Assembly: GCA_036172245.1 (NCBI GenBank)
Contig: JAYWIR010000013.1
Span: 2,604,001 to 2,668,000 of the forward strand
From: Raillietiella orientalis
Taxonomy: Eukaryota
Direction: 5' to 3'
Length of the DNA: 64,000 nt
In this document: positions 354 to 46,626 of the stretch, in pieces
Position numbering within the stretch: the stretch's first letter is position 1
How the letters are laid out: each line of letters opens with the position of its first letter
Made by a program: the position numbers and the translations under genes
Notes under the pieces: model-generated
Told to the model about the DNA's origin: nothing
Database searches by the model: none
The model's input: only the letters and a program-made list of their open reading frames with translations

Positions 354-470
354 CGCAAGTTCCCGTCTTGTTGTGGCACTTCAGCCATCCCAGGCACTGG
401 ATGTTTTTTGAACACGGACACCCTTCGGCCAGTAGCCCGGACAAGGACACTGTGACTTTGAAGCAGAACT
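354..470 (-). CDS. Cys-rich exon FCFKVTVSLSGLLAEGCPCSKNIQCLGWLKCHNKTGTC
   Basis: ttccag acceptor, GTAAG donor, 117 nt, phase 1-1. Confidence 0.8.
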
Positions 471-3400
471 CTGGAACATCACGTGATGCGATGGTGAGCA
501 TCCTTCCCGGAACTCGGATCCCAGAGGGCGGTCGTCGATCGATCGCCCTGCGCATTGTACCTGCACAACTCAAGCCTTTGGCGGACTCGCTGGGGACGCA
601 TTTTCGGGAGAAGCACTCGTCGGATGTGGTGCAGGGACAACCGCTCGGCCGCCACTTGCGCTTCGAACACCCGTCATCTGGAACGAGGAAGCGGTCGCTC
701 GACCTCCCGTGTTCGTGGTGAGGAAGCGAACGCAATGCAAGGCGTGGCGGCAGCGTGAGCGTGAAGCTCTCCCGGAGGCATTCGCGGCGAGATGCAGGCA
801 GCAGCCAAGATTTCTCAGGTGGCACCCCAAGTCTCCCTCTCTCTTCCTTACAGGTCGTGAAGCCACGCCCGACCCACTGCGGGTGCGGGATGCATGGAGT
901 CGAAAGATACTTCCCAAAAGCAGTCGGCGAAAGCACACTGAAGCGATCCCGTCCTCCGTACCTGTGCAGTGGCGTCTCCTGCAGTGGTGTTTGCAGTGTG
1001 CATTCGAAGAACACGGGCAGCCAGGAAGTCGTGGTGCGACGGCGCAGTCCACTAAAATGGAGGGCGTGAACAAGTGTGCGGGACTCCCATGAGGACTGGA
1101 AGACCACTCCATTCTTTCAGGGCAGAAAGACGGGCGTGATCCGCCTATTCCTTCCATGCGAGGAAAGGGGTGGAAATTCCGTACCGCAAATCTTCTTCAG
1201 CAATTTCCTCCCGCATACGTTGTGTACGCAATCCTGGGGGTACTTGCACTTGCAAAAGGGAGCCTTGGGGAAGACATCGCACTTTGGATCTGCAACATCG
1301 TTTTCGAGTCAGGCGGGCGGGCAGCACACATAAAGTGACGCATCTTTGGAACTCGACACGGATGAATCGGAACCGGAAACCCTCCCGAGGAGAGTCTGAG
1401 CGCGACAAGGATTCATTTATCAGACGAAAGGAACTGATTGGTGCAGCGGAGCAGTCTGTCTCTACCCAGCCCTCTGTGCACACTTCGTGCACGCGTGCAC
1501 CACTACGGCCGGGGTCGTGCTACTCACAGCATGTTCCGTATACGGACTTCGTTTCCCGTTTCACACAGGAGCCGGAATCGCACTCCGCGTTGGATACGCA
1601 GGAGCAGCCATGCTTTTTTTTTTTTGAACACTTGTCTGCAAGAAAAAGAAAGGAAAGGGGAAGAGGGGGAGGAGTGCACCATTGCGGATTATTCGTGCAA
1701 CTCCCTTCCGTGCTCGGCACGCACCTGCATCGCCGCAACCCAGAAACCCCGTTTTCTTGTCCCTAACGCAGACGTTGAAGCACTCCTCAGGCGTGGAACA
1801 CGCGCACCCGTCTGGATAAGGAGGAGCGCAACCTGGAGAGTTGTCATGAGCCAGCCCGCGTGAGCAGCAGCAGTCCCCACCGCATGCTTTGCCGCTGCAG
1901 TACTTCTCCTCGCATTCGCCGGGCTGCGCGCAGGGGCATCCCGGAGGCTTTATGTTCTGCTCGCAGACCCCTGCACAGGACGAGATTGCGGGTTTGGAGA
2001 CAGCGCGAGGGCGAGGATCCGCGCGCGCACGCAAGCGTTCCGAACTGAGAACAACCTCCGTCGCAGAAGTGTCCTCTCGTGTGGATGATGCAAACAGGGC
2101 AATCAGGATTGCAAGGGCAACCTCCGCCTCCGGGACACGCTGGAAGCAACCCGTTTATTCCGAGAGAACAGAAAGGCCCACAGAGTACCAGTGCATTTCT
2201 TGAGGTCATCCACGACTGCCAGGCAATCGTACTTCCCGCAGCTCTTCCGACTGTCGCAGGGGCAGCCCTCCTTGTCTCCAGGAGAGCACTTGTCCTCGAA
2301 GGCTGCTAGCGCCCTTCCCGGAAAGGCACATCGCGAAGAACGAACTTTTCTCACCACATGTCTTCTCCACGCACAAGGAATTCAGGCAGTGGCTGTGATG
2401 TCCGCATGGACACGTAGGGAGTTTCGTCGCCATCGCCGCGCACGTAGCTATCAGGAAAAGCAAGCAGGGATGCAAAGATCCAATGGCGGCGTACTGACCA
2501 GCGCCCAAGGCGCAGATGCCGCCGACGCATTGCAAGCTCAGGCAGGAATCCGAGCTGCTGCAAGGGCAGAAGGCAGTGAAAGGTTGTTTCTTGCAGTTCC
2601 CTGCAAACGAGAGTTTCAGCTCCAGAGGCGTTTCACCCCACAAGGAGCGGGAAGCCCAATGGGTGGGAAGGCCGACAGTCGCGCGACTGCCTCGCAGAGC
2701 AGCAAGCTGCATCCCGACCATCCAAGGAAGGCGGGAAGAACAAACGGGGAATCTCCAGCTTCTTACCGCAGCGGCTGACCCCTTTCACGGAGACACAGTC
2801 ATAATTGCACGGCTTGTCTTTGTCGCATGGGCACCCGGGAGCTCCCGTGAACTTGCACAGCGTGTCTAAAAAGGGGAATGCTTCAAGCTTGGTGGATCGC
2901 TGCTTCAGGCACCGACTCCACTCTCGGCGCGTGTCCAATGCGTCCGGGCTGGAGGAGGTGCCTCAGGGTGGCGAGGGAACTGGAGCGAAGCGAATGCTCC
3001 AGGAAGGCTGCTGGTTTCTCGCCTCCGCCGCAAGCGACCGCAAATGGGCATCTTGCCCTCCCCTTACCTTCTTCACACTTGAGCTCGTTCAGATTGCATA
3101 CTCCTTTACACTGAAGAGAGTTACTGCAGGGGCAGCCAGGGGCGAAAGCAGGTTTGCAGCTTTCTGAATCTCAAGTAAAGGGGGGTGCGGAGGAGGAGGA
3201 AGTGTAGGTGAACTCACGGCAATAGCATCTGCTGCACACACTTCCGGCTTTGCAATCCCCATCGACCTTGCAAACGCATGATGCCTTGCCGCAGATTTTG
3301 GAAGCCGTGGCTGGAGGGGCAATTATCTCACGGAAAAGCAAAGGAAGGAAAGGAGGGAAAGAGACTTTCTTGCGCTCCCAGCTTCGCGCGGGCGCTACGC

Positions 3401-6400
3401 TGGAAGTGCCGGACAGCAAAGAGTTAGTGTGCCCGGCATGGTCACGTGGAGCGCATGGAACGAATCCGCACCGAATGGTGACCCTTCGGTGTCAGGATCC
3501 GACTTGGGCCTCCGCTGCACTGCTGGAGCAAGGAGCAGTTGCCTGTGCCTCTACACAGAGGGCGCGAACGAGCAAGAGGAGGAAGAGAAACTGGAGGAAC
3601 CGCAAGATTTGCAATTTCGAGTTCGCCACGGCAGCTCAGGAAAGGCGGCATCTTCCCGAAACCCCAAGCACTTACCACATTTGCCCTTGAAGCACACACC
3701 ACAAGCGCACTGGGAATGATCCGTGCACTCGCACTCCGGGGGGAATGGAGGGTTCGCAGGGCACACCATACGACCTAGGACGTTACATCCTTACCAACCA
3801 GCTGACATGTTCAGGACATCTTTCAACACAGTCTCATGCGCGATCGTATAAGGGAAACAAACCCCGACGGTGCGTTTATGTCGGCTCAGGGGCTCGTTCG
3901 CACGTCTCCCTAATCATCGTCCGCAATCGCCTCTGATTGAACTCTTGATTGAGATGCGCGCGCACGCTCTATGCTCCTTGCTTGCGGGCTGCGATGGCGA
4001 AAAGCGGCCACTGCCCATCCGCTCTCGCCAATAGCCAGAGAAGTTGCTGACTCGGCGAGTCGGCTCGAGGCCAGTGGACTTGACCTCATCGCTGACCTCA
4101 GAAAAAGCGGATTGGACTTGCGCGCGCAAAAACCTGTCGGAATGGAATGAAGGCGCTGGACGACCTCGAGATGGAGCAACGAGAGCGCAAGGGACTGAAT
4201 GGAACCACGGACGTGCAAAACAAGAGGACTCACTGCATATTCCTTCCACGCATCTCAAGGATTTGTCGCAGTCTTCGTGCTTCTCGCACTGGCAGTACTC
4301 GTTGCGGTTCTCTCCGCTGCAGAGGGCTGCAAGAAGGCAACTTTTTCCCCACCTCCATCACGAAGGGTTGATGGGATGCCACGCGAGTGGGGAAACTCCA
4401 CGGGCGACCCGGCAAGATGGAGGGATGGTGGTGACCTACCGCAGACTTCGTCCACGCACGTTCCGCTTGCACACTCGAAGCTGGAGCTGCAAGGGCAGTG
4501 GGGCAAGAGCGGTTCCTTCTCAGCGCAAGCTGCATCTTTGCGGGAGAAGCCAGCAAGTTGGCTCGTATTCGTCCCTGACGCCCACTTACCACAAACCCCG
4601 CCGTAGGCGCCGTAGAATCTGCAGATGAGTTTCCCCGAGCAGCTTGAAGGGACGGAACACGGGCACTTGGCTGGTGCTGGGTACACACACTTTGCTGGAT
4701 GAGAAAGCCGCCTGTTTTGTGTTTGGGAGCAGTGGGAAGGTACCGCAAGAGCATTTGGCCGCACACCACTTGGGATGAGGACAGAGGCATGTTTTCCCCG
4801 TGGATTTGCACGCAGCAGACGGGACTGGTAAAGAGAGCACACAACATCACAACTCGTACGGGAGGCAACAAGCGAGTTCCGTCTACGACACTGCAAAGTG
4901 TTGAGGAGGGGGTGCCGAAAGGGCGTGCCTGGAGAGGGTTCCAGGTTTACTGAGAGCGGAGGTTCCACTCATGCCGGGTGCTGCCGACTCGCAGGCAGGA
5001 GCGCGACGAGCTCCCCTTTCCCCCAGGAGCCAAGAGTCAATCGGAACGGGAAGCACTCTGGATGCGGACTCGAACCACGGCGAGTCTGCGGCAAGGAAAT
5101 GATGGCCGCGTGGGGAATCGGGACGCAGATGCGAGACAAAAAACGGTCGATGCGCGTCGCATGAGGCGAGCTGGGAGCGACCCTCTTGCAGCTGCGAGTT
5201 CAAGTATGGCCGGATCCACATCTGCAAGGCAAACTACGGTCTGTAGCAGAGTCAAGGGCGGGCAAGGAAGGCCACAGTGACCTCATTCGACCTTTTTTTC
5301 TTCCTTTTGAGGGAGGGGAGAGACCTTTTCTACCAGGCAAGCCCAGGATTTGCTTGCAACGTAACAGCGGACCTCGAAGCAGATTGCAGCTCAGGGGTAC
5401 TCACCGCATATTCCTTTCGTACCAGTCCTTACGCAGGAGTAACCCGGGGGACAGGCGCCACCTGCTGCCAGCCGCTTTCCGGCGGTGCAGTAGCCAACTA
5501 GAAGATACAGAGGCATGTTGTTCTGCCCGCACCAATTAGCACGCAGGCGTTCTTTAGGGATGAAGACGCACGCCCGGGCGCACTTCGCGAGGCACGGAAG
5601 TGAGGCACGGAAGCGAGGCGCCTGAGACGCAGAGTGACAGGTGTCGGGAGGTTGCTGAAACCGAGCTCTTCCAGGACGGGAACCGTGAGAGACCCTCATT
5701 AGCGAGCTTCCTAGAAGCGGCCCTAGGTCACCCAAAGGAACCCACCGCTCGATCCGCTGCGGGGAGAGACTCCGTCCGCGAGTGCGCAACCCGCGCCTCC
5801 CCGGCTGACCGACCCATTCGAAGGCACAAGTAGCTGCGGCTGCCGATTCCTTTGCAACGCTAGAGAGGAGGAAAGGGTGGGGGTGAAGGTGGTGGTCGCT
5901 TCTCGAGCGCATCTTCGCGTGGAAGAAGCAAGGCCAGCCGGATTAGGAAAGCAAACACCTTACTGCATGTTGACGTCACTTCGTCACATCTTCCCTCGCA
6001 GTCATCAGGAGCAGCACACGCGCAGTTGGTCGTTCCTATCTCTTTCATGCAGGGAGCTACCAAGAGGAGAACATCAGTTGAAAAATCTTGCAGCGAAAAA
6101 TCGGATGGCAAATTGGCTAGAGGTGGATGATTTGCTGAGCAGCAGCAGTGGCACTCGATGCTTCGCGTATGCCTGCCAGCCTCCGGACGGCAGCGACCAT
6201 CACATATTGCGATCCAGGGGGAGCCATTCAGGGGTTCCCATTAAAGCCGGCCTCCCATGTCGACGACGCCTAATCTCAGTTTCCGCATTCGCGACTCTTA
6301 CATACAGCATCCTCCATGACAACACGTGCCGTGCCTCACTGTGAGGATGGCGGAACCAGTCCATGGGATTCCTCGTTCCAAGTCTTGGAGGCCCCTTGAG

Positions 6401-9400
6401 TAACGATAACCAGCAGACCATCATGGAAGGTCTCAGGGATGTCTGCGACACAGGCTCCAAAAGCATCAAGTGCGTGACCAGTGCTATCCTAGGTGGGTCC
6501 CTAAAGCGGATCCCAGACGACGACGGGCTCGATGCTGTCAAACGTGCACATCCAGCAGTGGAAGTCGGTGCAGAGGGTTTGTGGATTCACGAGCATTGGC
6601 GTAGGAAGCACAGGCACGAAACGCCTTCGTAGCCCCGTGACACGGGCCTACCGAAACGGCTGCGTTGCAGCTCATGGTTCGCGAGGTCGGTGATTGGATC
6701 GCAATGCCTCCTTCGACCCAGGTCAGGGGCGCCATTTCCGGAAATGGCGGCGTGCTCGGCGGTTTCCGAACACGCGCACGTTCTCTTCCCGGGAAACCCT
6801 CAACGCCCGTTGCATCCATTTTGTTGAAGCGTTCTGAGCGGAGTTCCTCACGAGTTTGCAATGGGTTGTCGGGATAAGGGGCCGCTACCTTACGGTGAAG
6901 AACAAGGAGTCGACACTTACCGCAGTATCCAGCGTGACACACTCCGCTGGCGCACGTCGCAGGCAATGAACACTGGCATAGAGATAGAAGGGGAGGTTTC
7001 TGGCAGTCTGGAACTGAGAAACAGCAATTCTTGGGATGTCTCCTCTGGACCACCCTTCGACCGTTGCATAACCGCGACCACAAGCACCGCCTTGCAAGTC
7101 TTCCGCAGCCCGGGAGGCTTGCAAGGGAGCGATCACAAGTGGCTGAAGAGCAGAGTCATGAGGCGCTTACCACAAGCTCCGTGTGTGCACACGAGGAGTC
7201 TGCCGCATTCGGAGGATGCTTTGCAGGGACATCCCCTGTATTTTCTGAATTTGGAGCACCAAGCTGAAAGGTGTTGTCATTATCACACTTGAGATGCAAC
7301 TCCAAGGCACACATGGGATTTTGGTCTTTTGTTTTTATCCGTTCCTTGGATACACGAAGAAGGAGTGCCCCGTTTCTCATGCGAAACGAAATATATCGGA
7401 GGGCGGGAAGGCACAGAAGCGAAGGAGCAGAGTACCTAGGGACGGCCTTCCAGTGCGTGCTTAGCGATTGCTTCTTCGGTTGTTGACCACTCCATGGTTC
7501 ATCATGCATGCGAACTCATCTGAGGCGGCGGAGAAGGGCACACTTCGGGAGAGTGCTCTGGGCACTGACCTCAAGATGACTTACGCGATGAGCCACGCCC
7601 GAGTGCAGCTGAAGGATGGAAGCGAAAGGAACGATCGCAGCGATTCGCGCACAGGACCACCGATCCTCGAGGGATGCCCAAGGCTGTAATTCAGCTTTTC
7701 GTGCTGAGAAAGGAAGGAAGCTGGAGGCTGGGAACGTGCACCACTTCCTCGCTCCCTTCCCTGCATCAGAGCGAATGAAGGAAAGGGATGCGCACGTTGC
7801 AATCCAGCGTGATGGAGTGGACAACCCAGCAAGCACCCTCGTCCCAGAGGTTCTTTTATTTCCCCCCCTCCACCCTCTGTGATGCGGACACCGGGACCAC
7901 ATCACTGGAAGGCACCCTCCCCGCCATGGCACGATGGGTGGCGAAATGACGGGCAGAAGGACCTTCCGAGTGAACCCATCTTCGGAAGCCGAGCCGAGGA
8001 CTTCCGCTGCATTATTCGCCTGCGCGTGGTGAACGGAAGCACCCTTTCGTTGCTGCGTTGGCGCGTCCGCCCGCATTCCCGTGCAAGTGACCGGGCAATC
8101 TTGACGTGGTTGTGGCTTTCTGCCGTGCCTTCCGAGACACAGTGACGCTCTTCGAGCGGCATCGCGAAACTGAAGTGAGGGGGGAAAGGAAGGGAATCTC
8201 TCCCAGGGGAACTCCGTCCACCCATCCCGGAGCGTTCCGGCACTCTCATTCTGTGGGACGGGCAGTGTCCGTTGCCGAGACTACGCTGAGAGCCACGAAG
8301 GAGATCGGTGGGGATCCATCGCGTTGGCAGGCGACTCGGGACACAAGAGACTCCTCCCACTCCTGCCCCCGCGCGAGAAGTGGAAGGAAGGGAGGCACTC
8401 GGACGGACCTTTCCCATCAGAATTCGGGAGCGTCGGAAAGGGACCGGGCACTTCCTGGCGTTTTCGCCCCCTTCCCCATACTGACCGCATGTGCCTGCTT
8501 CGCACTTTGCATTCAGGCAGTCGTCATCCGAGGAGCAGTTGCATCCAGGAGATTTGAGCAATCCGCTGCAGTCTGGAACTGCAAAAAAAAAAAGCAGAAG
8601 CATGAGATGAAGCTGATGTCTCCGCCGAAATCCCTTCCGGAATCCCCACAGAGCAAAACCCAACACCGAAAAGGGAAAAAGAGGGCATCTTTTCTTTCTT
8701 TCTTTTTTCTTTCCTTTTTTTTTTTTTTTTTCTCCGAGACCGGAGCAGGAATTTCACCTTCTTTCCGGTCTTTGCATCCCGGGGAGGACGCTATGACGAC
8801 GGGCATCCAGGATGCCTGTCGAGGTTGCATACAGGAGGGAGGGGGTGAAAAAGAGCGTTGACCCGCAAGGAAAGAAGAGAGAGGCATACCGCAGAGTTGC
8901 GTTTCCTCATCGCAGGTGAACGGGCGGCTGCAGTCCTCAGGCAGGAAGCAGTCACAGTAGACCTCACGGCCCCTCCCCATGCAAGTAGCTGAAATGCCAA
9001 GAATTCCTTGGACTCCTTTCGGAGTTTGCCGGAGCAGCGCTCCGGCTGGCGAGATTCCGTGAAAGACTCAGTCGGAGGGAGGGAAGGAATTGACAATCGC
9101 TCCGTCGAAGATATCGACAGATTGCTAGAGGGAAAGCAATGGGTGGAGAAACGGAACGCTTACTGCATTTCCCATTCTTGCACATGTGGGAGGAGCAGTC
9201 TTTCGGACCGGAGCAGGGGCAGGAAGGCGCAGAATGCCATCGAATGGAGGGGCATTTTCCCGGAGCATACACTGCAAAGACATAGAGGTTTTCATCACAC
9301 AGAAACGCGCGTCCCCTTCTCTCAGCACGGGACGATGCTGAGAGACCACTGAGAGAGCTGCATCACGTTGGAAGCGAGTCTGTGGCTATTCTCCCGGAAT

Positions 9401-18400: not shown

Positions 18401-21400
18401 GAAGCAAAGACTCCTCGGTCGCGCGGAAGGAACGTGCCGGCGGGAAGATGGGAACCAACTTACGGCAATGTCTTTTTATGCACGACCCGCTCATGCACTT
18501 GTCGCCAGTCACGCAAGCGCATCCTGAAGGCCGCTTGTCACTTGGGCAAATCAAATCTTGAGGACATTCGGGAAGTTCTCATCAACCGACTTACTGCAGA
18601 TTCCTGCCATGCACTTGTATGGGGGGTCACAGGTGCCATTTACGGCACACGGGCACCTGTACTTTCCGAGCATCAGTTTGCACGTTACTTCGATTGGAAA
18701 AAGGGAGTGACCAGGAAAAATGGCTGCAACCCGGGGCAAAGGATGCACTCACCACATTTCCCGCTTTCCGAGCATTCCAAGCCGTCGATGCACTTGATGG
18801 AACTTGAACACGGACAGTTGTATGCAACCTTCTTGGATTTCGAGCAACCTGGAATTGATTCGACGGTGTGAACGCGACGAGATCCGATGTGCGAGAGGAT
18901 GATCGACACGCCTTTGACAGGCATGTGTGAAGCGTGGAACGGGCCGAGAGGCATCAGGGGACCCTCTCCCCTCCCTCCCTCCCTCCCTCCTGCGCGACAG
19001 CACCACTTGAGAGAACGGAACATTTCCCGAGTTTCGATCCCCCGCGGAGTAGCCGGACGAGTCCATGACGGTCACGGGAAACAGAAACGCGCCATGTTTT
19101 GCACGACTGCTGGCTGATCTTTCGAAGGCATCGGCGCCGTGCACGCAGGTGCGCTTTCTTAGAAGAAGGAGCGAGTTCCGCTTTTGGACGCACCACCAGA
19201 AGGAGCTGACATACTGAAAATGCTCACCTGGAGTCTCCGGTTCCGGACCTGCAACGAGAAATTCCGAATGAAAAGCTTGAATTTTGTCAACCGGATAGGC
19301 GGGGAGGGGATCACCACATAGGGGAAGTGCAAAGTGACAAATTTTCCCGTTAGCCGAAAATTCTCAAAGGATCGGGGATGCATACCGGGAACCGGATCGT
19401 GTCTCGGTAGTCTTTTCTCGCATTTCTGCATCGCGCCGGAAGGACCGGAAGCGTTCCCGAGTGCACACCGAAACGGCACTGCGCCACCTTCGCACGTGCG
19501 ACATCCACTCAAGCGATGACAAGAAAGGAAACCCTCGAAATATGGGTATGTGTGTGGATCGCTCTCGGATCGTCCACTCGGTGCTCTCGCTGGAGAGATG
19601 CTTTTCTTCCCGGTGAACACTGGGGAGCTGCCTTTCGTAAGCCTTCATGCACTCCTCCGTCGGAATGCTCACCCGTATGGCGAGTAGGCCGCTCGTTACG
19701 CCCGCTCGTGTTTGCAAAGAATTCGTTGCACGAGCAGCCTAGTTTTGCCAAGGTGTTCTGCAGTCCAGCAGAGGCACCGCACGACAGAGAAGGGAAACAG
19801 TCTTCCCCTCATCCCGTTGACGATGGGGCCGTCCACGCCCGCAAGCGTAAACTCGTGTGCGCGTGTGGAATGCGACGGAAGCTCCGAGACAGCAAGTGAG
19901 TGGATACGCCTAGCGCAAGAAGGGAGGCAGGAAAAGATCCGGATGTTGCCTGCCCCTGAGTGAGGCAGCATCAAAGTCAGCAGAGCAGGAGGCTGCCTGG
20001 GTATGGAAGCCTCCTGCTCTGCCGTTCGGCCGTCGGCATGCGGATGAGACACTCGGAAACTGGGTTGGTGCAACGAACGGCGGAAGACTGCAAGTTTCGT
20101 TTCTGCTGCTGGAGGAGGGACTGCTGGAGAAGCGGATGCTTTTCGGATCGATGGTCACGAACTGAGGAACAGTCGACTTAGCGTTTCCCAAGAGAGTCGG
20201 CATCGAGCTCTGCAGATTTTCTTGCAGCGACTCGGTGCGGAAAAGTGCGTAAGGGGATACCGCGGACGCTAAGTTGACGTTCGGCCACGCAGTCGGCAAG
20301 CACCGCGCTTGGCCCGAATGTGCCAGCTGCGTCGAGCCTCTCACCGCGGTCGCGAAATTTTCCACCATGCACGCGTGAATTCCTGCCAAGAGGAGGAGGA
20401 AGGTGAATCCCCCTTCTCGGACCTTCCCAGCTGCCATTACGAGCAAAGGAGGCGTGCCACTCACGCGCGCTTGGAAACGCGTTTGTGGCGCACCCTTCTG
20501 TGTAGACAATTTCGATATTTCCTGTTTATTTATTAATATATATTTAATATCGAAATTTATCACCTGGAATGACCGGGTGGGTAAATTTCGATATTCCCTG
20601 AAGATGCGACACTGAGAGCAAGAGATGCACGCAAGTAAGATGGAGCAGAACGATACTTACATCTCTCTTTCTCGCATATGCCTCTCGCTGCGCAGCAGCC
20701 TTTGCATTCGTCTCCTTTCCTTCCTGAGCACTTGCAATTCTCGTCCTTGAGAGCCTGCATCTCGCAAGGCACGTCCCCTTTCGGATCTAGGAGGGAAGAG
20801 ACGAATCACCTGGAGACCGCGGATTCCTGGAGTATGCCGACGACATGTGAGCGATCGCACGTACGCGGCCGCGCGGCTAGCTAATGCGGGCACTGCGACC
20901 TGAGGGAGGTCAACGGAAGGCTCTCTCATTCAGAGACGAAGAGCGTTTGCGTGCTCCGCTTGGACGTCTATAATAGACGTCCAAGCGGAGCACGCGCGCA
21001 TCTGCACACGCGAGGAGCGGCAGGCGCGGAACCCATGCGCGTGCACTGAGAGCGGTTCACAGCCACGGAGGAAGGGAGCTGCTCAGATGAGCGAAAACCC
21101 GCAGACCTGTTTTCAGGGTTGGAGGTCGCTGCCGGCGGCAGCCACCGTCGGAGTTCCGCATGCGCAAGAACTGTATGCTTCGGAAGGGAAAGAAATGGCG
21201 AGCCAAAAGGAACAAGCTCGTTTGAAATGGCATCCCCCGATGAGCGGGAGACACGCGGAATGCGCTAAGTTGCTGCGGCGGTGAGCGCAGGGATGTCCAA
21301 CTCTCTGAGCACTCCGGGAAACGCGCCAAATGGGATTTCAGAGTCGCAGCTCTGAGCACGCAGGCGCAAGCTCCCGCCAGGATAGAAAGGGGAAAAAAAG

Positions 21401-24400
21401 GAGGGGTGGGGATGACTTTTTGCGTGAACCGAGAGCTGGAGTAAAAAAAAGAATTGAGCGGGAAGTTGCGTTGGCGGCAAGAGGCAAGAACTGCTAATGA
21501 ATTTTCGGATCACTCTCAGTGAATTGCTCGAGCATGATCTCAAGACGAACGCATAGGCCGCTCGTACGTCTGAGCTGTGGAAAAGCCTCCTCCTCCAACT
21601 CGACTCACCTGAAGGGCACCCACACTGGTACACGTCAAAGCTGATGGAGAAATTCTTGACTAAAGTTGTGATTGAGAGCACGGCCTCCCCACTCAAACGC
21701 AGAATTGCTGAAATGGAATTCCTGAAGTATAGAACACTCATCGAACACCACCAGTGCTGTTTGCACTGAACGTCAGCGCATCAGCATGTGGTTTCTCGAT
21801 GGCTGACGACGGTTCGGTAGATGGTAGCGATAGGAAGAAAAGATCCAATCCCTGGAACTTGCGGGGATAAGCGAGTGTCAAGGATGGAATGCAGTGAGAT
21901 CAACACATTCGCAGTCGAATAATCCTCTGCCTTGACGGAAGAGCACCTGGGCGAAAAAATTCTCCTGCTCTTCCTACTAGGAAGAGTAGTAGTTGGTTCA
22001 CTGAGCAGGAACTTGGGCCTGTCAACATGAGCACAGCACCTCTGTGACCAGTGCTCTCTTTCAACAAGTACAGTGTGGTCTCACATCGATGACTTTTCCT
22101 AGTCTGCCTTGTAAGGATGATGATCAGGAGTTTCCACAACGTATCCCCTGCGATCGTGCGATCCAAGCTCTTCGGACACCCTTCCGATTCGGATCTCATA
22201 GTGTTTCCTTTGAAAAACAGGAGCCCAGAACTGGCAGCCGTCCTCTGTGGTCTCGGGTATCGGATAAGAGGAAACGGCCATCAGGAAGGATGAGTAAAGG
22301 GGATCTCGCCCCGTGGCACTGCTCCCCTTGCTTTCATGCTGAATGCATTCTTTCTTTCCCTTTCGGGCTGTAACTTTTGGACGTTTCTTCCTTTTCATAA
22401 ATTGCCGTGAGCGCGAATTTGCTGACATCTTGCGTGATCTTGCCTTCAAACTTTTCGTTTTCTTTTGCTTTTCAAGAGCAGAGACAAGGAAGGTACTTGC
22501 AACCTATCCAACAGCAGCGTCTATTAGAAAGACTTTGCTCAACACAGATTGTTGCTGCTTCTTGCGGGGAATAGGAAAGCCATCCACACCGAATGATCGA
22601 AAAACGAGCCACGTGATGCAGTTGCACTGCTTTCCGATCTGGAACCTGCGTTCGCCAACATCGCTGTTTCAGTGCGTAAAGTTTTTGTTCTCCAAACCGG
22701 GTTGAGATCACCATCCTGAATGTCATGAACCAGTTTGATCGCAACGGTCCGTTTCTCACGAGGCGCTCTGCAAGAATCCCAAGCACCGTGCTTTGCATAT
22801 TTGGAAGGAGCACACAATCCCCAAGAAAGTGAGCGAACGAGCCACTGGGTTGATGAAAACCATGCGTACGTTACGTAACCCTTCCGTTCTTTCCACTCAC
22901 TGGGTGGTAGAAGGAAAAATTCCGCCGCGATGCACGATTTGCTTTCAACGATCCCTCGCTCCTACGATTTTTTCTCCACTTGCTACCTGTGCGCAATGGT
23001 GCACATCTCCACGGTGCTCTAACTGCCTAGCAGTTTCACCTTCCGTGTTTAAGACATCCCCACAAAGGGATGTACGGAGGGCGATCGGAAAGCACTGCAG
23101 AAAGCAGCAGAAGAACGATGCATTGGTCTGCGACAGTGCTTGACGCACAGAGGTGCTTTTGAGCAGTTTCCACACTCCGTTGTCGAGCTACCTGGGTCTC
23201 CAACGCGCCTGTGTGCTCGTGAGAGCACCAGACAAGTCTTAGCCGGAAGCTGTTTCCCAGAACGTGCTGCGATGCACTGGTTTTCCGAACTTTGGTCAGA
23301 GAACTCGGGTTGCACTCGTAGCAGAAGGGATGGCAATTTTTTTCGGGGTTTGCGAGTGGCAAAAGGAACATTTGGTTTCCCTACTCCTCATCCCGATTCC
23401 AAATTTGTATTTTTCCGGCAGAAGAGTGGTGAGATTCCTGCTATCGGTCCCCATTTTTCGCTGCAGGCACCCGTGTTCTTACCGACGTTCCAGGATCGAC
23501 ACGAAGGGTACCGTTTTCAGCACAAGGGCAACATCCCTGAATTTCGAGAAGCGCGGTTACCTTGTTCGCCACTTTTGTTGCCGCAGACGATATGCTGCAC
23601 CTCCTTCCGCTGATCCAGCTGCTCCAAAGATATCGACTGTGCGGAGAAACACTCCTTCGTTTGCTGAAGTCCCGAAGCCATGAGTGCCTGTATGAAGTGG
23701 ATACTGAAAAGCAACGGGAAGATATTCTGTATGGGTCCTGCTCAATCCTCCCAGAGTGAGGTAACCAATCTGTCGTTCTTCCGATCCGAAACACCCACAC
23801 CCAGCAGTGCTTGAAGGAATGGCCGCGAAACACCCTGAAAGCAACTTCGATAGAACGCGAATCGGAAATGCGATCTGTTTTGCGACAAGAAACTTTCCAG
23901 TTGAAGCCTGCACGAGGTGGACATCCAGTGGACCAGGTAAAGATGTTTCTTGAAGAGTTGGCTGACAAGGATACCTGAACCCTCTGCCTATTTATGACTC
24001 ATGAGAGAGCAAACAGAGACAAGCCCTTTCCCTGGATCGCACCCTTGTCAACCCTCACCGTAGCAGTTCTTCGCCATATGTTTCCGAAGCACACAGACAA
24101 TGTGTGCGATCGCCACAAGGATGCTAGAAACGTGTGAAATGCTGCGCTCGCCCTTGAGGTTGCTTTTCTTCGCTCAGGATTGCTGCTCTCCTGCGCCTGC
24201 TGCTTGTTCACCTTCGCCCTGATCTTTCAAAAAAAAAAAAAAGAAACGGCGATTCGTGTTTCCTCCATCGGTCCGCCCGAAACAAGACATTCGCGATCGC
24301 TTGCACGCCATTCGATCTCCGCATTCAACAAGCGAAAGTCTTTTTTCCCTTCTCACGTACGATATGCACTTCCCGACATCCTCGCAATCTTTCGCGATGC

Positions 24401-30400: not shown

Positions 30401-33400
30401 ACAGCACTGCGCCACGCGATGCACTTCCCTCTGCTTTCTGTTCAGACAGAGGTCGCGAACGGACGCTGCCTGCAACACTCGTCTCTGAGGAGACTGCGTT
30501 CCGCAATGCGGGATTCGTTCAATCGTACGGATGCACCCTACTGTTCTCTTTCCGTTCGCGAGGAAAGAAGAGCACTTTTCCGGTCGCGACTGTGACGCAC
30601 ATCTGCCTCATCAAGATCCAAGCTTTCGAGGAGAAAAGAGCAGCTACCTAATAGCAGCTTCTTGCTCAACCATCACCTGAGGAGGAGCAAGACCGGCTTG
30701 GGAGGGTCTTCTCGTACCTGAGGGAAGGTAAGGGATGGCATCGTTCAGCGGAACGGGAGAAAGCCCGAATCCTCCGTCTATCTCCAGTCCGCCGAATCCC
30801 CTGACTTGGAAGTAACACAAGAGTTTCAAGTCGGTCATCAGTGCGATTGTGTGCACCCCTACGACTGGAAACAGATCAGTGTGCACAACTTTTCCCTGAT
30901 CCATGCTGAGTTCTTGGGGGCTGGAAACTGGCTTTTGAAACGTGATGTCCATGTTGGGCATGTTCAAGGCATATTCTTCGGGATAAATTGTGTGCTGGAA
31001 GACTTGCGTGCAAGCTAGGACAAACGTGTAGTTCTGGATGGTGCCATCGAGCTCGAAAGAAAACGTGCTGCTTTCCGTTCTGATCTCGTAGTGGATCAAT
31101 TCCGCATACAGATGACTCTGAATGACGTATTTCATGAGAGTCTGGAAGACGAGCACATCAGCCACAGAATGAAAACGGTTGTGATCTATTCAGTCATCGC
31201 GAGCGTGGACTTCCCCGCATCAAGATGCGAGCAGAATTGAAGGGATTGACACCGAAGCTCGCTTTCCGACGGAGATTCAGCTTGCGCGACGGTCTGCAGG
31301 GTTCGCAGTTTCGCTAACCGCACGATCGAAATCCGGATGCTGTCTCAGGAAGGAGCCGTTTCGTTTCCAGGGGAAACGGGACGAAATCGGGTTTCCAGCG
31401 CTGGAACCGCTCCGCGATTTCTTTGCAGATTAGGGCATGAAGATGGCAAGTAACGAAACGTCGGACGAAGAGACGGGATGCTATTTCCGATTCCTCCCTG
31501 ACTTCCACGCGTTCTCACATTTTCCCGATCCGTTCTGGAAACTGTGCAGATGGTGGCACATCGTCGGAAACCACGTGCTGTGATTTCGGGACTAAACCCG
31601 CATCGCTAGGATCTTTACGGTCTGTTCGCGGAAGCACAGGGATCTGTGTACACTCCTTGTGCAGAGCGCTGAATCCTTGATTCTATTCAACGTTCCCATA
31701 TCTCCTATCCCCAGATGCACGTCAATCGTCCTTCCACAGAATCAGAGAAGTGTGCTCTTGAGATGCAAATATCCCGAAACTTTGAAATATGCACTTCGTT
31801 TTGGCGGTTCGTGGGCGAGAAAATTCGAAGGGAAAATGCGAAAACGGTGCCCTGGAATGAGCTCGTACCTTCTTCATCTCGCAAAGCACCCATCAAGACC
31901 AGTTAAAGCGAAAGGCAACAAAAATTGAAAGAATGCATGCAACCGTTCCACTGAGTGGTTTGGATGAGTGATTTTTCGTATCCAGCATTTCCTTAGTCCC
32001 AGAAACGCCCAGCAGTGGGAATAGTTTCATTGCAAAAAAAAACAACCTCTGCCTTTTTCTGTTTTTCGATGCATCGTCTCTTGCAGCTACTCTTTAGTGT
32101 CGCCTCCGGTTGCATCTTGAGGACGTGTGTTTCATAAACCCGTGTTTCACCCATCCGTTTCTCTCCTCCTGTGCCGTGACATGTGAGTTGCAGACCAAGG
32201 TTCCTCATTGCCCCTCCGATGTCTTGAAGCTGTTGTTAGCCGTAAAGGAGACGCACTTGCAGCGATCTGAGAGGCGTTCTGATTCAGGTAACTTTCTGTG
32301 GACCCTGATGTGGACTTAATTTTCAAACCTCTTGTCGCTCGTCCGGGTCACGCATCAAAAGTGACGAAAGGCGACCTCGCGGTATTCTCACTCACAGGTG
32401 AAGGTCGAAACTGACGCTATCGCATCGGTCATCATCATCGTGCAATGCTTTTGGCCTCGGAAAGAAAGTGTTTCAGGAGAAAAGACAGGGTTGCTTCCTT
32501 CTGACATGTTGCCTCTGAGATGGTTGCTTCCAAAGTGGCAGCGAATAAGAGCCTTCTACAGTATGGCTTGCTCTTCGGGGAAAGACCTGTTCTGCTCCCT
32601 CAACAGAAGACTCCATCTTCTCCAGGATGCTGCTTTCAAATGTGATGGTCCATGAAAATGGATGCACACTCTTCTTTTCGATGTGAGAGAATCGATCCTT
32701 CCGTATACGATTCAAAATGCCGTTTCAAAAGTGCTTTCTGTTTGAGCTTCTGGATCCTCCCTCTCTTCCTTTATTGGCCAGAGAATTTCGCCTTCTAAAG
32801 GCTGCAATTCCACTCGACGGTAGCACTGTCCTCCTGAAAGCTGTTTTACGCGCTCCGCTGCCTTTTCTTTTTCCAACAGGCTGATCCCGAAAATGGACGC
32901 GCCGCCCCTCCCACGATCTGTATCTCGGTCAGGACAAGTTTTGTCTGAGAGTACGCCCGAGACAGTATTCGAACCAGCCCTTGCACTGCATCCTGACCTT
33001 GAATCTGATACAGCTGACTGGTTCTCTGTGGAGCTCACGTGCTGATTGCTGGACTTCGTCTCGGCCATCAGTCTCGCGATAAACATGACGGATGTAAGAG
33101 ACTTTGCTTTCGTTTCCGTGGGAAAAATTGAAAGTTTGCGATCGAGACATTCTGAACCATTGAAAAATTCCTCCACAAGTTGCTGACGGTGGACAAACAC
33201 CATGGAGGTCTGCAAGAGTTTGCCTCTCACAAGCGATTTCCTTTTGATCTGAATACCATGGAAGCAGTACATCCTGGTTTATTATCAGTATCATCCAGTT
33301 CCCCAGTACGCATGGAATGATCTTATAAACCGCCGATGCTATTGCGTGAAAATGGAATCTGTAGACACTGCCAGGTGAATGCGTGCGCTGCTCCCTATTG

Positions 33401-36400
33401 TCCAAACCGCGGATGCTACGCCCGTTATGGGGTCGCCCTGACCTGGTACAACGTGGGCTCGCACAAGTGGATGCAGCTGAAGATGGTGGGGGGTGAAGAT
33501 CAGCCCCCTGCCAACGGACAGGACCCAGCCCCGTGCGGACGGGCAGACGTGATCGCCAGAGGCGGCGGCGGGAGGGGCAGACCCCTCCTCCCGCCCGTCT
33601 CCCCACGAGGCCCCGCCCTGCACGCTAGTCCGTCCAGGGATCCCGAGGCCGCCCGGGACCTCGGAGTCAACGAGCGACGACCCGACCGAGCGGTGGCCGG
33701 ACAACGCGGTTCTACTTAACAGCCCTGTCCCTTCCCACCAAGTTCACGATGCAATCCACACGGCTGCTTCCGAATTAAAGTGGAGACATTGCCTTTCTTC
33801 CATGTGGGTGAGTCTTGGAAACCACCTTCCATAAAAATGAAGTCGGCAGAAGCGGTTGTAGGAGTTTTGTTGCCTTAGACCACGGGTTGCACCTTGAATT
33901 CGAAATTCTTCGAGCCAGTTACGTTCCCTGACTTCCTTGCATTCCTTTCCTTTCTGCCTGTGCAACATGTCTACAGTGATTCTCCTTAAGGACCAATTGG
34001 AACTACGTGAAAACACGGCAGTAGCAAGGTTTGCTTCTTCCTATTCTTGGTGGCGAGGACAGTCACCGACTTTCCTGCAGCGCTGCTGCGGATCCTTCAT
34101 CGAAGCTATCCACGCGCTATTTATGCGTAAGGACGTTCTGAAAGGGAAAAACGGATGCCGGGATCTACGCGCCCTTGGCCTTGGCCTTGTTTCGTTTCGA
34201 AATTTCGGAATCCCATCACCCGGATCCAGTCACTAGGATCATGAGTGAATCACGTTTTGAGAATAGTAAGTTGCCTCATCGAGACAGTGCAACAAGCGAA
34301 ACCTGGGCAATCAACTTTCATTCGTGTTTGAAACCGTGTTTTCTCAGTGGATCTTTCCTTACATGGCGTCATGATGTCGTCTGCAGACACTCCGGAAATG
34401 CTCCTCCGCGCTGGACTTGGATTAACGAAGAAAATTTTCCCACGGCAAGTGGCAGAGCGGACCGAATCGTGTAAACTGACCTGCCACCATGCTCGTTACT
34501 TGACGGTGCTGAAACGTTCGTTTTCAAACCCGGAAGCCGCTCTTACTCAACGAAACCGTAGGACCATCAGACACAAAAATGGCGGCTCGCTGCATGTTCT
34601 GATGCTCCGATTTCAATCCCTTCAATTTTTTGCAACAGCGAAAATCAGGTTGCAGATTAATGCAACATTGACATGATAACGTACGTCCACATGCGTGTCC
34701 CGCAACGTGATTTTATCATGAAAAGCGACTATTATAAGAAAGGGACACGAATTTTTTCATCAGCTTACATCTTGGCCATGGGCGACACTATGCGGAAATA
34801 CCATTACTATGGATGTAGTGGACATCAGAATATCATTATAAAATGGACTGAATGACCTTAAGTCCATAGTGAGGTGCACGAAAACATACTGAAATACAGG
34901 AAACATTAACGAATAACACCAACAGTGAACGATTATTGAATACATTAAAGGAAATCTCACCTAATGAACAGTCCCAAAGATTTGGTTATGTATTTGGATT
35001 GTGAAATGCCTTCGGTTCGATTGTCTTGCCCAGAGTCAAACAAACCGGGGATCTGGGCGTTTCCGAGGAAATGGTAGCATACTGAATGAAATAGGTGGGA
35101 CTGCTTGGACTATGAGCGAGACCGCCTCTGGAGCAAGCAATACGGACGACCGTTTGCAAAAGAATGGGAATGTACGCGAAACGGACACTGCTCACTATGG
35201 TGAGTGTATGCTTAACGAGGAGTTTTTTGGGGGGGAGGGGAAAAAACTCTATTGGTATCTTCACACGTTCCTTGAAAATCGGGATATGTGAACGCCGTTT
35301 CCTCCATCCAGAGAGGACCGAGAGGTCTGTGCTGACGGCCTCTCAAACTGGCTTCACTTCAGCCGCCACCCTCAATTGCAGCATCAAAACAAACGTATCC
35401 GAAACACCTCGAGCTCACGTTTGTGTTTGCGTGCGATTTATGAAACCCAAAGAAATTTCAAACTCAAGGAATGGGAGCGAACTCTTCCGAGATCACGGTG
35501 CAAGAACCATCTTTCGGTTTCAATGTCTCTAATTGTAAAATGACTGGGACAAAAAAATTTCTTCAGCTATACGTTTCCTCCTACTTTGTGTACGTCTGGA
35601 ATTATACGCGTTCAGTACTTAAAACAGATCCTATATTTTGGTATGCGCACTACATCAAGAACGAACACGAAAGCATTTGTCATTGGTATACACACACATG
35701 TATTATTTCCGCCTGGGAAGCGATGTTTCCCTCATGTCATGCTTGCCGTGGACACGCGTTTCCGTCTATTGAATGAATGAGCTCTACCTTTATTTTCCAT
35801 TCCATCGACTCCTTCAAGACTTTCTCTTGAACGTGTTTGTACTTGCTAGCCGCATCAGAGAATATCATGACAAAGGACCTGAAATCGACAGAAGTAGCAG
35901 CTTCGTCACGGAATCTTCAAGATGTTGCAAAAGATTCCATTTCGCGCATCCCAGCTGCGATAGCCCGCACGGAAACGCACGCGAATGAGGAACGCGGGGA
36001 TGACCACCCACAAGGAATACGTGAGAGACCACTTTGATTGCATGTCAACCGACACAGACCCTAAAGGCCTGCAGTCTTCGCGTCGCAACACTCTTTGCGG
36101 AATGCGCTTCTCCTTCCGGAAGGACAAAGGTGACCCGTTACTTCGGGTGGAGATGTTAGAAGACCACGGAGAAATCGAGCTCTGCTTCCCTCTTCATCAC
36201 CATGCAAACAAAGCGACGTTTCGATCGAGGTTCGAATGTCAAGTTGGATCCTCCCAAGAGCCAGGGTCGCTTTTCTCCATCAACCTTCCAGAAAGAGGGA
36301 AAACTTCAAACGCCATCAGCTAATCTGTGCCAAGCTGCCGGAATATCCGTCCCGAATGCGTCCGTCGAGACATTTGTAAACAAACATCTTGACACGGCCG

Positions 36401-39400
36401 TGTGATTCCGAATCTGATTCCCGGTGTTGCCCCTGAGAGATTTTCTCATTTCCGTTCCGGAAGACAGCGACGACTCCTTCCTTTGCAGCTGATCCAAATT
36501 GCCTAATCGGTGTTTTGGAAATTTCGCTACTCAGTGTAACTGCTCGCCTTCATCCTCCTGACCAGGAATCGAGAAACAAACGCACCAATTAAGAGATGCT
36601 CTTCAGTGTCACTTGATCAATGATATCCCATTCGCATTACTCTGGAAGTAGCCAATGGTTTTCCTTGTTTCTCCTTGTTCCTTGCACTACTCTTCGTAGT
36701 TCTTTGCAACTATCCTTGTCTTACCTGGTCCCCCCACCTTCTATTCCTCACTTCGACTAGCTTCCACGATTCCTCCCTTCGTGTTTATTTTTCTCCACGA
36801 ATCCTCACTCAGCTGCAAGCAGGCCTTCACACAGTCGCTTTCTTCCGCTTGCGCAGGCTTGTGGCCAATCTTTGTTCAACGTTAGTGGACGGAATGAATG
36901 TTGCGGGAGACGAGTTTGAAGAAATCTTCCTCCAGTGGAACCTCGGTGCTTGCTGTGGTTGAAAATGGTCTCTTCTAACCAAATGTATTCTTCGCTTGGA
37001 CCGCGCCTTCCCAACCCTTTCCCACACTGTATCTTTCCTCAACTTGGCACCTTTCCCCATTTCTCGTGGGCGTCGCCCTTTCATAGGAACAGATACACGG
37101 AAACAACCTCTTGTCGGTTTTCCTCTCAAGGGAGCAACATGCTGTTGCACTTTCTGGAAGGGCCTCCCTATTCAGCCTGCCGATCCGAATAATGCCAATG
37201 CATTTGAGGCTTTGGGTATTTCCCCAACGCCTGACGCTCACCAGGAACATAAGGCTAACAGAAAGCACATTCCTGGTGAGCAGCCGTCCGAACTTCGGAA
37301 TCTCTGTGACTTTGCCAAACGAAAAAACGCATTCCGATTCTTATCCGTAACTCTTCCCTGTAACACCTTCCACGACTCTGTCAGTAACAGGGTGGTGGGC
37401 TGAACCACTCGAGGCTATCCCCCTCTCCGGAGTCTGCCCTGTTTCTGCCACATCAGCATGTCGGAACAAAGGAAAGCCACACCACGATCTCCCCTTCGGA
37501 AAGCTCTCTGACTGGAGCGCCGATGGAAACGCGGTTCCCTGACGGAGTGCTGCTTGAAAGTACTGAAACTCTTGAAATTCGAATCTGCGGAAAGAGGACT
37601 GGCTCTGGACCTTCGGCACATGGAAAGTCGGCTTCCACCTGCTTGCCGATTTTCCCGAGTTCAAGTTTTCCGACAGCGTGAAAGCACAGAGCGAGCAGAT
37701 ACATACCTTTTTTGCACCATGTTTAGTGCTACGGTATCCAGAGTGTGGTATAGTGTTTCCGGAAGATCTTCTGAAAAGCTATCTCGCATCACAACTTTCA
37801 GTATTTTCAGCAACTCTTCGTTTGTGTCCGCCACTCCAACTAGATGGGAAACACAAGGAAACTTGCAGTGTACGTTTGAATTCTTGTCGAGCACAGGCTT
37901 AGAAACTACTCTTTCATTCCTTGTTTCCAAATGGTGTCGTAAACCCCAAGCACTTGCAAAACGAAGGCATTGGGAGCGATGAAAGCAGGGGCATTTGAAT
38001 GGATCAAGGTGTTTGAGAAAGCAACAGGAAGCTCTTGTCAGGTTGCCTCTCCACAAAATTGTGGCAACGACGAAGAATGCATCGAATCACACGATTGGAG
38101 AGGGAGCATGCCGAGAGAAAATGTCTACTCCGGAACGCGTTGCGTTGATGTACTCGGATTCGCCGCAGGCGAGGCAGAAGGGATGCTGCCTGTCTGCTGA
38201 CGACGCGGGGCCACCTCAGGAATCTCTGCCCAGATGCGCGGGGGAAATCTTCCGGAACTCCGAACAGTGAGCTTCTCGAGGGTACTGCCCTTGCACGTGT
38301 GACTGCTCAACGCGCTTCAGTTAGGTCTCCAGGCTGGGACTACACGTTCTTATGTTGTTATGGTAAGCTTTCCACACTCCTACGTCGGAGCCACCTAATA
38401 GAATTTCCCCGTGGAAACCGAGTGCTTGCGAGCAGAGTACCGGTTTGCCTTCGTCTTTTACCACCCGGTTGCACTTCCGCTCTCGATAACCATCGGCGTT
38501 CCACAGGAAGCTCATCTTGCCACAGTTCTTACTGTTGGGGAATCGGCAGTGCGCACGTTTCGCAGAGACCCACCGATGAACCTGCAAACAGCAGTTCGAG
38601 ATCGGCGGTCTCTCGTACAGCAAGTACATTTCTATTTTCGAGATTCCATCTTTTTCACGTGGGCTAAGGCACACATGGCCCACAACGTGCTTCGCTGCAC
38701 CAAAGTTTGACTTTTCCTATCTCGATTTCGCATCGCTTCTCCTGGCTTTGATTTTCTACTTGTTCGTACATTAATGCTGGTGTCTTACACATGCTGATCA
38801 AGCTGACCGGTGAGTATGTAGTGCTGCACAATTCCAAAACATCGTTTCTTCCTTTGACTGGCGTCCAAATCGTGAGACCTCATTGCAGTCGGCTGTACTT
38901 CATTCTTCATTCTTCCCTTTTCAGTTGTTGAACGTGGGAAGAGATAGGCCATCCCAAAATGATGGAATTCGCTCTGACTTGAAGACTGTCAAGTTTGCCG
39001 GGTTTCCGAGCAAGAGGCACAAACTCGTCGCAGTTTATAGAGAAGATTCATCCGAGTGATCCCTCGAAGATGCCCACAGCTTCATGCCCCTTCTCTTGTA
39101 ATACCGCAAACGAGTGGGGAGACGTTAACAGAGAGGTACGTCTGACTGGCCTTTTATCAGCAGATCTGCGGCATTTCGCTGCTTGCTGCCAGTTGCCTGC
39201 CACAAGTCTAAACTGATGCACAGCCAAAGCAGCTGGGCGGAAAATCAGCTCTTTCCTCAAAGGACAGCGTTTCCAAGACTGCGGAAATTTTCGCAGCCTC
39301 ACAAAGCAATCACCTTCCCGCACCCTTACTCGGAGGTGAATCTGGCGTTGGAAGGCATTTTACCGAGAAGACCTCAAAACAGAAAACTGGAAACCACTGC

Positions 39401-43381: not shown

Positions 43382-43399
43382 ATTAATTGAACCAAACAG

Positions 43400-46300: not shown

Positions 46301-46461
46301 GTCCTTGCTGGGTCGCACCGGCAGGCGCGGGCGTCAGCTGTCCGAAGAGAGAGAGCGCTGCGTTCTCCTCCAGATTTCACCGCGGAGAGCACAGCCGAAC
46401 GCTTCGCTCCGCACGCGACCCCCACCAACCGCACTTCTCCTGTCTTTGCAGTCGCTTTCGA
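43400..46461 (-). mobile_element. Degenerate L1/Tx1-clade LINE: ORF1 with CCHC knuckles + APE endonuclease, 3'-truncated
   Basis: CAFCETAGHARWSC; APE motifs SLNC, LQETH, NVYG, MGDLN, IDHVL and SHHPV; frameshifts and stops. Confidence 0.85.
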
Positions 46462-46626
46462 AGGAGGCTGCGCGAACGCAGCCTCCCAACCTAAAAATTA
46501 TGCTTCCGAGTAACCCGCATTTGGGGTTATCGCGGAGGTCAGCCCCGCCGCCGTGCAATGGCAAGGCCTCGCTCCGGAGGAATTGCCATCGTGAACACAA
46601 TTAAGACCTCGAAGCCAGGTAAGTAT
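46462..46626 (-). ncRNA. U1: U1 spliceosomal snRNA, copy 1
   Basis: Reverse complement of 57292-57456. Confidence 0.92.

Follow-up and report, generated by a model that had tools for sequence, protein, structure and literature searches.

The 64-kb stretch of Raillietiella orientalis contig JAYWIR010000013.1 analysed here (positions 2,604,001 to 2,668,000; hereafter the window, numbered from its first nucleotide) has a G+C content of approximately 53%, is free of N, and holds many spurious long open reading frames (ORFs) in all frames; its introns are of the GT-AG type. The minus strand carries 43 exons leading leftwards from 41024: five putative head exons (E1 to E5), which include pieces resembling a von Willebrand factor A (VWA) domain, one linker exon, and 37 exons that each encode a small cysteine-rich module (Table 1). 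Judging from the sequence, we consider it moderately probable, on balance, that they belong to a single intron-rich gene with a minimum of 43 exons over at least 41 kb, truncated at the left edge of the window and encoding a secreted, disulfide-rich extracellular protein. An initial annotation of this DNA had proposed a VWA head followed by about 37 divergent modules of approximately 30 amino acids (aa). The present analysis recovered the same number of modules, and the upstream exon with a signal-like segment and the motif GLVIDTTGSMG was found as described, at 41024-40718.

Exon anatomy of the cysteine-module tail

A six-cysteine regular expression matched the minus strand 33 times, from 20766 to 565, and the plus strand once; on 20 letter shuffles of the whole window it gave no match in 18 cases and a single match in 2. 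Adding splice sites led to 37 module exons on the minus strand between 20786 and 354, with one module of approximately 30 aa each. Together with the linker they form a tail of 38 exons, every one of which (38/38) has AG before it, GT after it and a length divisible by 3, so that all are phase 1-1. The donor, GTAAGT-like, usually lies one base past the last cysteine codon, and a pyrimidine tract with CAG or TAG is found a few codons before the first cysteine. Splicing these exons by script yields 3789 nucleotides (nt), or 1262 aa, with 0 stops and 226 cysteines (17.9%). The product is rich in lysine, with 158 Lys and Arg versus 123 Asp and Glu residues.

The 37 tail introns range from 38 to 2618 nt (median 218), and in 33 of them a stop or a frameshift prevents read-through; splicing is therefore required. 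Short unreadable introns of 38-65 nt (18557-18594, 4695-4743, 2303-2354, 3164-3217 and 18688-18752) occur in one gene together with introns of 1-2.6 kb, and this two-sided spread of lengths may help to place the organism. Between 10001 and 16000, the G+C content falls to 44-49%, versus 52-59% on both sides; the interval is also that of the longest tail introns (up to 2618 nt), and its tested ORFs showed neither a Pfam domain nor a transposon. Pfam also recognised 0 families in 80 further ORFs on both strands inside the gene region, and hence no transposon or nested gene is seen there. As module exon 37 ends at 354 on a GTAAGG donor, the gene extends past the left window edge. Boundaries are uncertain for module exons 3, 7, 19, 20, 30, 31/32 and 36, and exons 31 and 32 may be one exon because the 48-nt intron between them is in frame and open.

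For a hidden Markov model (HMM) of the module, we used 35 modules and scanned the complete set of 1842 six-frame ORFs with 20 aa or more. This returned 33 domains at an independent E value (i-E) below 0.01 on the minus strand, all within 20769-355, and 0 on the plus strand; the scan is circular for the training modules, and its informative part is that nothing was found elsewhere in the window. Tandem Repeats Finder detected no array at the DNA level. The alignment of 35 of the 37 modules (A1), from which the atypical exons 5551-5405 and 4824-4744 were left out, has the consensus C-x8-C-P-C-x5-C-x4-C-x2-G-x-C, in which four cysteine columns are invariant and another two are conserved at 90% or above. 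Pairs of modules are on average 31% identical, dropping to 13.5% outside the Cys-Cys columns, i.e., the cysteine frame is kept despite very low identity. Neighbouring modules are as dissimilar as distant pairs (0.303 vs 0.316), and the module most similar to a given one stands 3-30 positions from it. Since identity is this low, yet every frame is open and the cysteine columns are kept, the array looks old, with its frame and cysteine skeleton under purifying selection, rather than like a recent expansion or a decaying repeat.

Table 1. Exons of the candidate gene in 5' to 3' order, in window coordinates. Module exons are based on splice sites and a joined open frame, and most are also matched by the module HMM; "settings" are the penalty settings of the exon-chain model in which an exon was retained.
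Feature	Position	Strand	Remarks
Head exon E1	41024-40718	-	Signal-like stretch, first strand and helix of VWA; phase 0 to 1; VWA_4 match; 5/5 settings
Head exon E2	37839-37707	-	Middle of VWA by position and eye; phase 1 to 2; coding-like composition; 5/5 settings
Head exon E3	~35914-35788	-	VWA strand 4, SDA motif; enters in phase 2; VWA_4 match; both boundaries uncertain
Head exon E4	31141-30718	-	141-aa beta-rich segment, no known family; phase 0 to 1; 5/5 settings
Head exon E5	27995-27792	-	67-aa beta-rich segment; phase 1 to 1; alternative 28014-27814; coding-likeness 11.7; 5/5 settings
Linker exon	21707-21609	-	Ends ...YQCGCPS; phase 1 to 1; acceptor 6.3, donor CAG/GTGAGT 4.3
Module exon 1	20786-20661	-	7-Cys variant
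Module exon 2	18848-18753	-	
Module exon 3	18687-18595	-	Alternative acceptor 18723
Module exon 4	18556-18464	-	38-nt intron before exon
Module exon 5	17047-16955	-	
Module exon 6	16851-16759	-	
Module exon 7	15567-15466	-	5-Cys variant; weak acceptor
Module exon 8	15309-15217	-	
Module exon 9	14652-14557	-	Divergent; i-E 0.31 with module HMM
Module exon 10	11938-11846	-	
Module exon 11	11364-11272	-	
Module exon 12	11040-10942	-	
Module exon 13	9271-9164	-	First sequence of alignment A1; module used for folding
Module exon 14	8988-8890	-	
Module exon 15	8578-8486	-	
Module exon 16	7263-7171	-	
Module exon 17	7007-6921	-	
Module exon 18	6056-5964	-	
Module exon 19	5551-5405	-	Atypical 5-Cys spacing; weak acceptor; not in alignment A1
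Module exon 20	4824-4744	-	Short, atypical; not in alignment A1
Module exon 21	4694-4590	-	
Module exon 22	4529-4440	-	
Module exon 23	4326-4234	-	
Module exon 24	3774-3676	-	
Module exon 25	3310-3218	-	
Module exon 26	3163-3068	-	
Module exon 27	2865-2767	-	
Module exon 28	2600-2499	-	
Module exon 29	2447-2355	-	
Module exon 30	2302-2189	-	Weak splice scores
Module exon 31	1970-1881	-	48-nt intron after exon in frame and open
Module exon 32	1832-1725	-	Uncertain boundaries
Module exon 33	1635-1528	-	
Module exon 34	1289-1185	-	
Module exon 35	1051-962	-	
Module exon 36	677-561	-	Weak donor; alternatives 567, 591
Module exon 37	470-354	-	Ends on GTAAGG donor

Relatives of the module

None of the 35 aligned modules reaches any Pfam cut-off. 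Below threshold, eleven families were matched, each in 1 of the 35 modules, including DUF7107, EGF_DL_JAG, three spider-toxin families, LEAP-2, Dickkopf_N and EB; the best E values were 0.0029 for DUF7107, 0.076 for Dickkopf_N and 0.079 for EB. The module profile had 0 matches to PDB sequences at E≤1, and a search of a library of 1.84 billion representative proteins gave 15 weak matches at E≤0.001, none of them at 1e-10 or better. Ten of the 15 reach the Pfam cut-off for DUF7107, Dickkopf_N or EB, and these carry four-cysteine repeats of the form P-x-G-x-x-C-x5-C-x-S-G-x-C-x2-G-x-C. Comparing the module profile with 75 four-cysteine units from 13 of the 15 library matches, hhalign reported a probability of 95.3% (E 2e-8, 28 columns), a value that is partly circular since the units had been picked by the same module profile. 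The modules share with DUF7107 (PF23416), Dickkopf_N (PF04706) and EB (PF01683) the spacing of their last four cysteines and the glycine before the last one. They differ in having two more cysteines (C1, and C2 of the C-P-C motif), which presumably form a third disulfide, and in that each module sits on its own phase 1-1 exon. From these sequence comparisons, the modules are most likely a six-cysteine elaboration of the four-cysteine DUF7107/Dickkopf_N/EB unit by one extra cysteine pair.

Two of the 15 library matches have the same six-cysteine frame and no Pfam family, VWA included: P0001 from the barnacle Amphibalanus amphitrite (XP_043214807.1, 1846 aa), which is the best library match, and P0013 from a marine protist (MMETSP transcript). 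Both carry the frame C-x9-C-x-C-x5-C-x3-C-x5-C in long tandem arrays, with 48 modules recognised by regular expression in P0001. However, the similarity between P0001 and the window modules is weak (E 1.6e-7 summed over 44 stretches; hhalign probability 64%), and the P0001 array alternates between two module types whose copies are recent and near-identical, whereas the modules of the window are old and diverged. P0001 is built almost wholly from these two alternating six-cysteine modules, and it may be justified to define a separate family for this module type.

The source of P0001 names it "neurogenic locus notch homolog protein 1-like", and two of the 35 modules have weak matches to Pfam families of the epidermal growth factor (EGF) type, at E 0.025 and 0.088. 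Both points would suit an ordinary EGF-like or Notch-like repeat array, a reading of the tail that we consider very improbable. EGF domains have six cysteines with the C-x-C pair between the fourth and fifth; here the pair is between the second and third, and we therefore do not read the module as an EGF domain. In addition, 0 of the 35 modules pass any EGF cut-off, and P0001 itself has no Pfam family at E≤0.1.

The initial annotation had also proposed structure prediction of a single module. With the 35-row alignment, AlphaFold gave a model of the exon 13 module at a mean predicted local distance difference test score (pLDDT) of 73, but the fold matches to this model were insignificant: the best Foldseek match was the spider peptide 5fzv (E 2.0, probability 0.20), and VIA-align found knottin-type spider peptides as its best matches (Z 2.8, root-mean-square deviation 2.4 over 28 residues).

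The head exons and their proposed joining to the tail

A Pfam search of the minus strand from 20.8 to 41.4 kb (145 + 146 ORFs) gave two relevant matches, both to VWA_4 (PF25106; gathering cut-off 27 bits), which is the sole family on the head exons. Scored as separate exon translations, E1 matches profile positions 2-48 of 169 (E 3.1e-4, 20.8 bits) and E3 matches positions 90-133 (E 4.9e-3, 16.9 bits); the two matches are colinear, with successive profile positions in gene order. E1, bounded by acceptor ttcttccag/GAG and donor ACA/GTGAGT, contains the hydrophobic signal-like stretch FWILLLLLSSAELSSAAC followed by GLVIDTTGSMG. E2 carries ...NEELLKILKVVMRDSFSEDLPETLYHTL..., which by eye resembles the middle of a VWA domain; its place between E1 and E3 agrees with this, and we infer that it encodes that part. 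E3 carries FVMIFSDAASK...KIKVELIHSI; its acceptor is at 35914 or 35878, and its donor is at 35788 (AAG/GTAGAG) or at a weak later site before a stop at 35740. The metal ion-dependent adhesion site (MIDAS) of VWA domains is formed by D-x-[ST]-x-S after strand 1 and D after strand 4. Read from the sequence, VIDTTGSMG in E1 and VMIFSDAAS in E3 agree with this signature; the third contributing residue, a threonine, was not located. Among the named Atlas clusters, the ten that score best for E1 (0.76-0.89) are without exception members of the VWA clan (integrin beta, VWA_4, VWA and VWA_2), which we take as a lead only. E1, E2 and E3 have a protein-like composition. The earlier proposal of a VWA-type head with a DxTGS motif is supported.

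The same proposal had called the head hemicentin-like, which finds partial support. VWA_4, which we take to be the hemicentin/VWA7-type VWA family, is indeed the best and only head family, and the proposed window gene resembles these proteins in having DxTGS on the first strand and in a predicted product that is very long, secreted and modular, with the VWA domain N-terminal. On the other hand, the matches are below cut-off, and according to the Atlas VWA_4 also occurs in many bacterial proteins, so that a match is not specific to hemicentin. In hemicentin the VWA domain is followed by a beta-sandwich, a long immunoglobulin (Ig) array, EGF repeats and a fibulin-type end. The window tail consists of another, unclassified six-cysteine module. 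Searches of the region's ORFs found no beta-sandwich, Ig, EGF, G2F or galactose-binding-like family of the hemicentin type; the gene's 3' end lies outside the window.

An exon-chain model trained on the tail splice sites was run at five penalty settings; an early version with a low exon penalty produced dozens of tiny exons and was discarded. E1, E2, E4 and E5 were retained at every setting. E4 has the top coding-likeness in the head (15.8) and an acceptor score of 7.2; with an alternative donor at 30863, it would run from phase 0 to 0. For the E4 region, the best Atlas score (0.89, to bacterial YxiG-like clusters) was set aside as noise because recognition was below its usual level, and an AlphaFold model of E4 made without an alignment was unusable (pLDDT 34.6). 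The linker exon was picked in 2 of the 5 settings, with a variant starting at 21721 in 1 more. An exon at 33248, which the initial annotation had placed in the chain, proved not to be robust: its donors are weak and it was picked in 0 of 5 settings, with a variant starting at 33209 in 1 of 5. The proposed junction from 21609 to 20786, by contrast, is a plausible pair of phase-1 donor and acceptor. Joined by script, the 43 exons give 1661 aa that are free of stops from head to tail, with consistent phases (E1, 0 to 1; E2, 1 to 2; E3, 2 to 0; E4, 0 to 1; E5, linker and tail, 1 to 1). From the shared strand, this open and phase-consistent chain and the lack of a convincing separate start exon for the tail, we infer that head and tail are joined, and the product would be secreted, disulfide-bonded and adhesive.

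Several points weigh against this single-gene reading. E1 contains no in-frame ATG, and the candidates for a preceding start exon (beyond 41024, with an ATG and a phase-0 end) were all unconvincing. Neither E1 nor E3 attains the 27 bits required for VWA_4; the final fifth of the VWA_4 profile (positions 134-169) has no match in the 145 + 146 minus-strand ORFs and may be too diverged or split over exons. E2 alone has no Pfam match, E3 runs into its stop codon with no good donor ahead of it, and E4 has no match in Pfam, in PDB sequences or in a homologue search among longer proteins. Among the tail introns, several are as short as 38-65 nt. No robust exon lies in the 6.1-kb interval from E5 to the linker, which could be intergenic, and the agreement in phase is weak evidence because there are several splice sites to choose from. 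On the side of the module, the absence of any Pfam match at cut-off, the insignificant fold matches and the partial circularity of the hhalign comparison count in the same direction.

The 6.1-kb gap is longer than any tail intron (maximum 2618 nt) and would suit an arrangement of two adjacent, co-oriented genes, namely a short VWA gene from 41024 to approximately 27792 and a cysteine-array gene with its own 5' exon between 27792 and 21707. As the first tail exons start at phase-1 acceptors, the tail needs an upstream exon. Only four weak candidates that combine an ATG, a hydrophobic segment and phase 1 lie upstream of it, none of them like a classical signal peptide. A candidate start exon at 22199-22085 offers an ATG, a nine-residue hydrophobic run and a phase-1 donor (2.6), but a 20-residue charged stretch precedes the run and strongly basic sequence follows it, which is unlike a cleavable signal peptide. 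Moreover, the strongest head exons chain in phase to the tail without a stop, other head introns are long too (1.8-4.6 kb), and no terminal exon was found for a head-only gene. We therefore regard two genes as rather doubtful, while keeping them under serious consideration.

A further possibility is that the cysteine array is a real gene whose true 5' part lies elsewhere, and that the VWA-like pieces upstream of it are a relic in decay or look like VWA by chance. The sub-threshold Pfam matches of E1 and E3, the missing C-terminal fifth of the VWA profile, the stop in E3 and the lack of an ATG in E1 would all fit such a relic, as would the outcome of the homologue searches. These yielded nothing for E4; for E1 they gave no homologue among longer proteins and, in metagenome contigs, 226 pattern matches of which 0 were confirmed. 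Among PDB sequences, E1 had chance-level matches only (E 1.5). We nevertheless consider a relic or chance head unlikely: two independent exons match VWA_4 at successive positions in gene order, DxTGS and SDA are placed as the metal site of a VWA domain expects, the Atlas matches of E1 are uniformly of the VWA clan, and E1-E3 combine protein-like composition with matching phases. In the single-gene reading, which we prefer, the product is a real and probably lineage-specific secreted modular protein.

Neighbouring features, known architectures and possible function

Less than 2 kb upstream of E1 begins a near-perfect palindrome, with arms at 42910-50729 and 53174-61018 (approximately 7.8 kb each) around a spacer of approximately 2.4 kb. 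It comprises eleven inverted-repeat blocks that are 94-100% complementary, and may reflect either a genuine inverted duplication or an error of assembly. Each arm carries one full-length U1 spliceosomal RNA gene (RF00003, 127.2 bits each, model 1-166), at 46461-46626 on the minus strand and at 57292-57457 on the plus strand. A Yos1-like ORF lies at 47117-47323 on the plus strand (PF08571, E 9.5e-11, profile 6-81 of 81), with a mirror copy near 56601-56818 on the minus strand. It has too few words in common with any library protein for a homologue to be named, which suggests a poorly sampled lineage. The 555-codon open frame at 49787-51451 on the minus strand is rich in Arg, Ser, Pro and Ala and has no Pfam family; rather than a gene, it is probably an ORF that arose by chance in the G+C-rich DNA of the palindrome.

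VWA domains combined with arrays of small cysteine modules are known from matrilins (VWA and EGF) and hemicentin, and Drosophila Dumpy is a giant matrix protein of EGF and DPY modules. The proposed window gene resembles Dumpy and matrilins in joining an adhesive or assembly domain to a long rod of disulfide-locked modules on symmetric phase-1 exons; the module family differs. Pfam Dumpy_DPY matches two bacterial-type library proteins at E of approximately 0.015 and 0 window modules. A closer precedent for VWA plus small cysteine repeats is P0012, an unnamed protein of 585 aa from a Logan contig that combines a classical VWA domain with DUF7107-type cysteine repeats. It differs from the window gene in having a classical PF00092 VWA rather than VWA_4 and approximately 8 four-cysteine repeats rather than at least 37 six-cysteine modules, and the two show no detectable orthology. 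P0012 is probably bacterial, since its N-terminus looks by eye like a lipoprotein signal.

The initial annotation had called the architecture unfamiliar. This holds in so far as the library of 1.84 billion proteins gave 15 weak matches and no Pfam family fits; it does not hold entirely, since the modules are probably of DUF7107 type, P0012 is a precedent, and P0001 and P0013 share the frame. A literature search turned up no description of the architecture and no match for DTTGSM, which cannot show absence from print. The general design of a VWA head on a cysteine-repeat stalk is already known; what is new is the six-cysteine module without a curated family, the old 37-fold array with one exon per module, and the pairing with a VWA_4-like head.

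The predicted protein would begin with a hydrophobic signal-like segment, continue with a VWA domain that has the DxTGS...SDA metal-site signature and VWA_4 as its closest model, and then pass through approximately 200 or more beta-rich residues of no known family into a stalk of at least 37 six-cysteine mini-domains. The VWA head may bind a ligand via a metal ion. Locked by disulfides and resistant to proteases, the array could form a rod in which three-disulfide units, 37 or more of them, follow one another like beads; on the model of EGF-type arrays, such a rod would be stiff, withstand proteases and measure tens of nanometres. It might hold the head off the cell or matrix, or present many weak binding surfaces. 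The protein would thus work in adhesion or in the matrix, which we consider the likeliest role.

We also put forward a bolder interpretation, which we regard as possible though tentative: the modules may constitute a new six-cysteine mini-domain family, a three-disulfide elaboration of DUF7107/Dickkopf_N that is scattered in eukaryotes (this organism, a barnacle and a marine protist). Shuffling of phase 1-1 exons would have built it into an old array of at least 37 modules on a VWA head, giving a new adhesion or matrix class in a lineage without a sequenced close relative.

The locus opens or settles no long-standing question. It is a textbook-clean case of a domain array made from symmetric phase-1 exons, and since no exon alone reaches a family threshold, genes of this kind escape annotation. 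The modules are tiny and probably very stable, and tolerate nearly any residue outside six cysteines, one proline and one glycine, which makes them candidate scaffolds. Should the proposed gene model be true, a poorly sampled eukaryote would contribute to the known extracellular proteins both a new type of small disulfide-rich module and a head-plus-stalk architecture that is likewise new.

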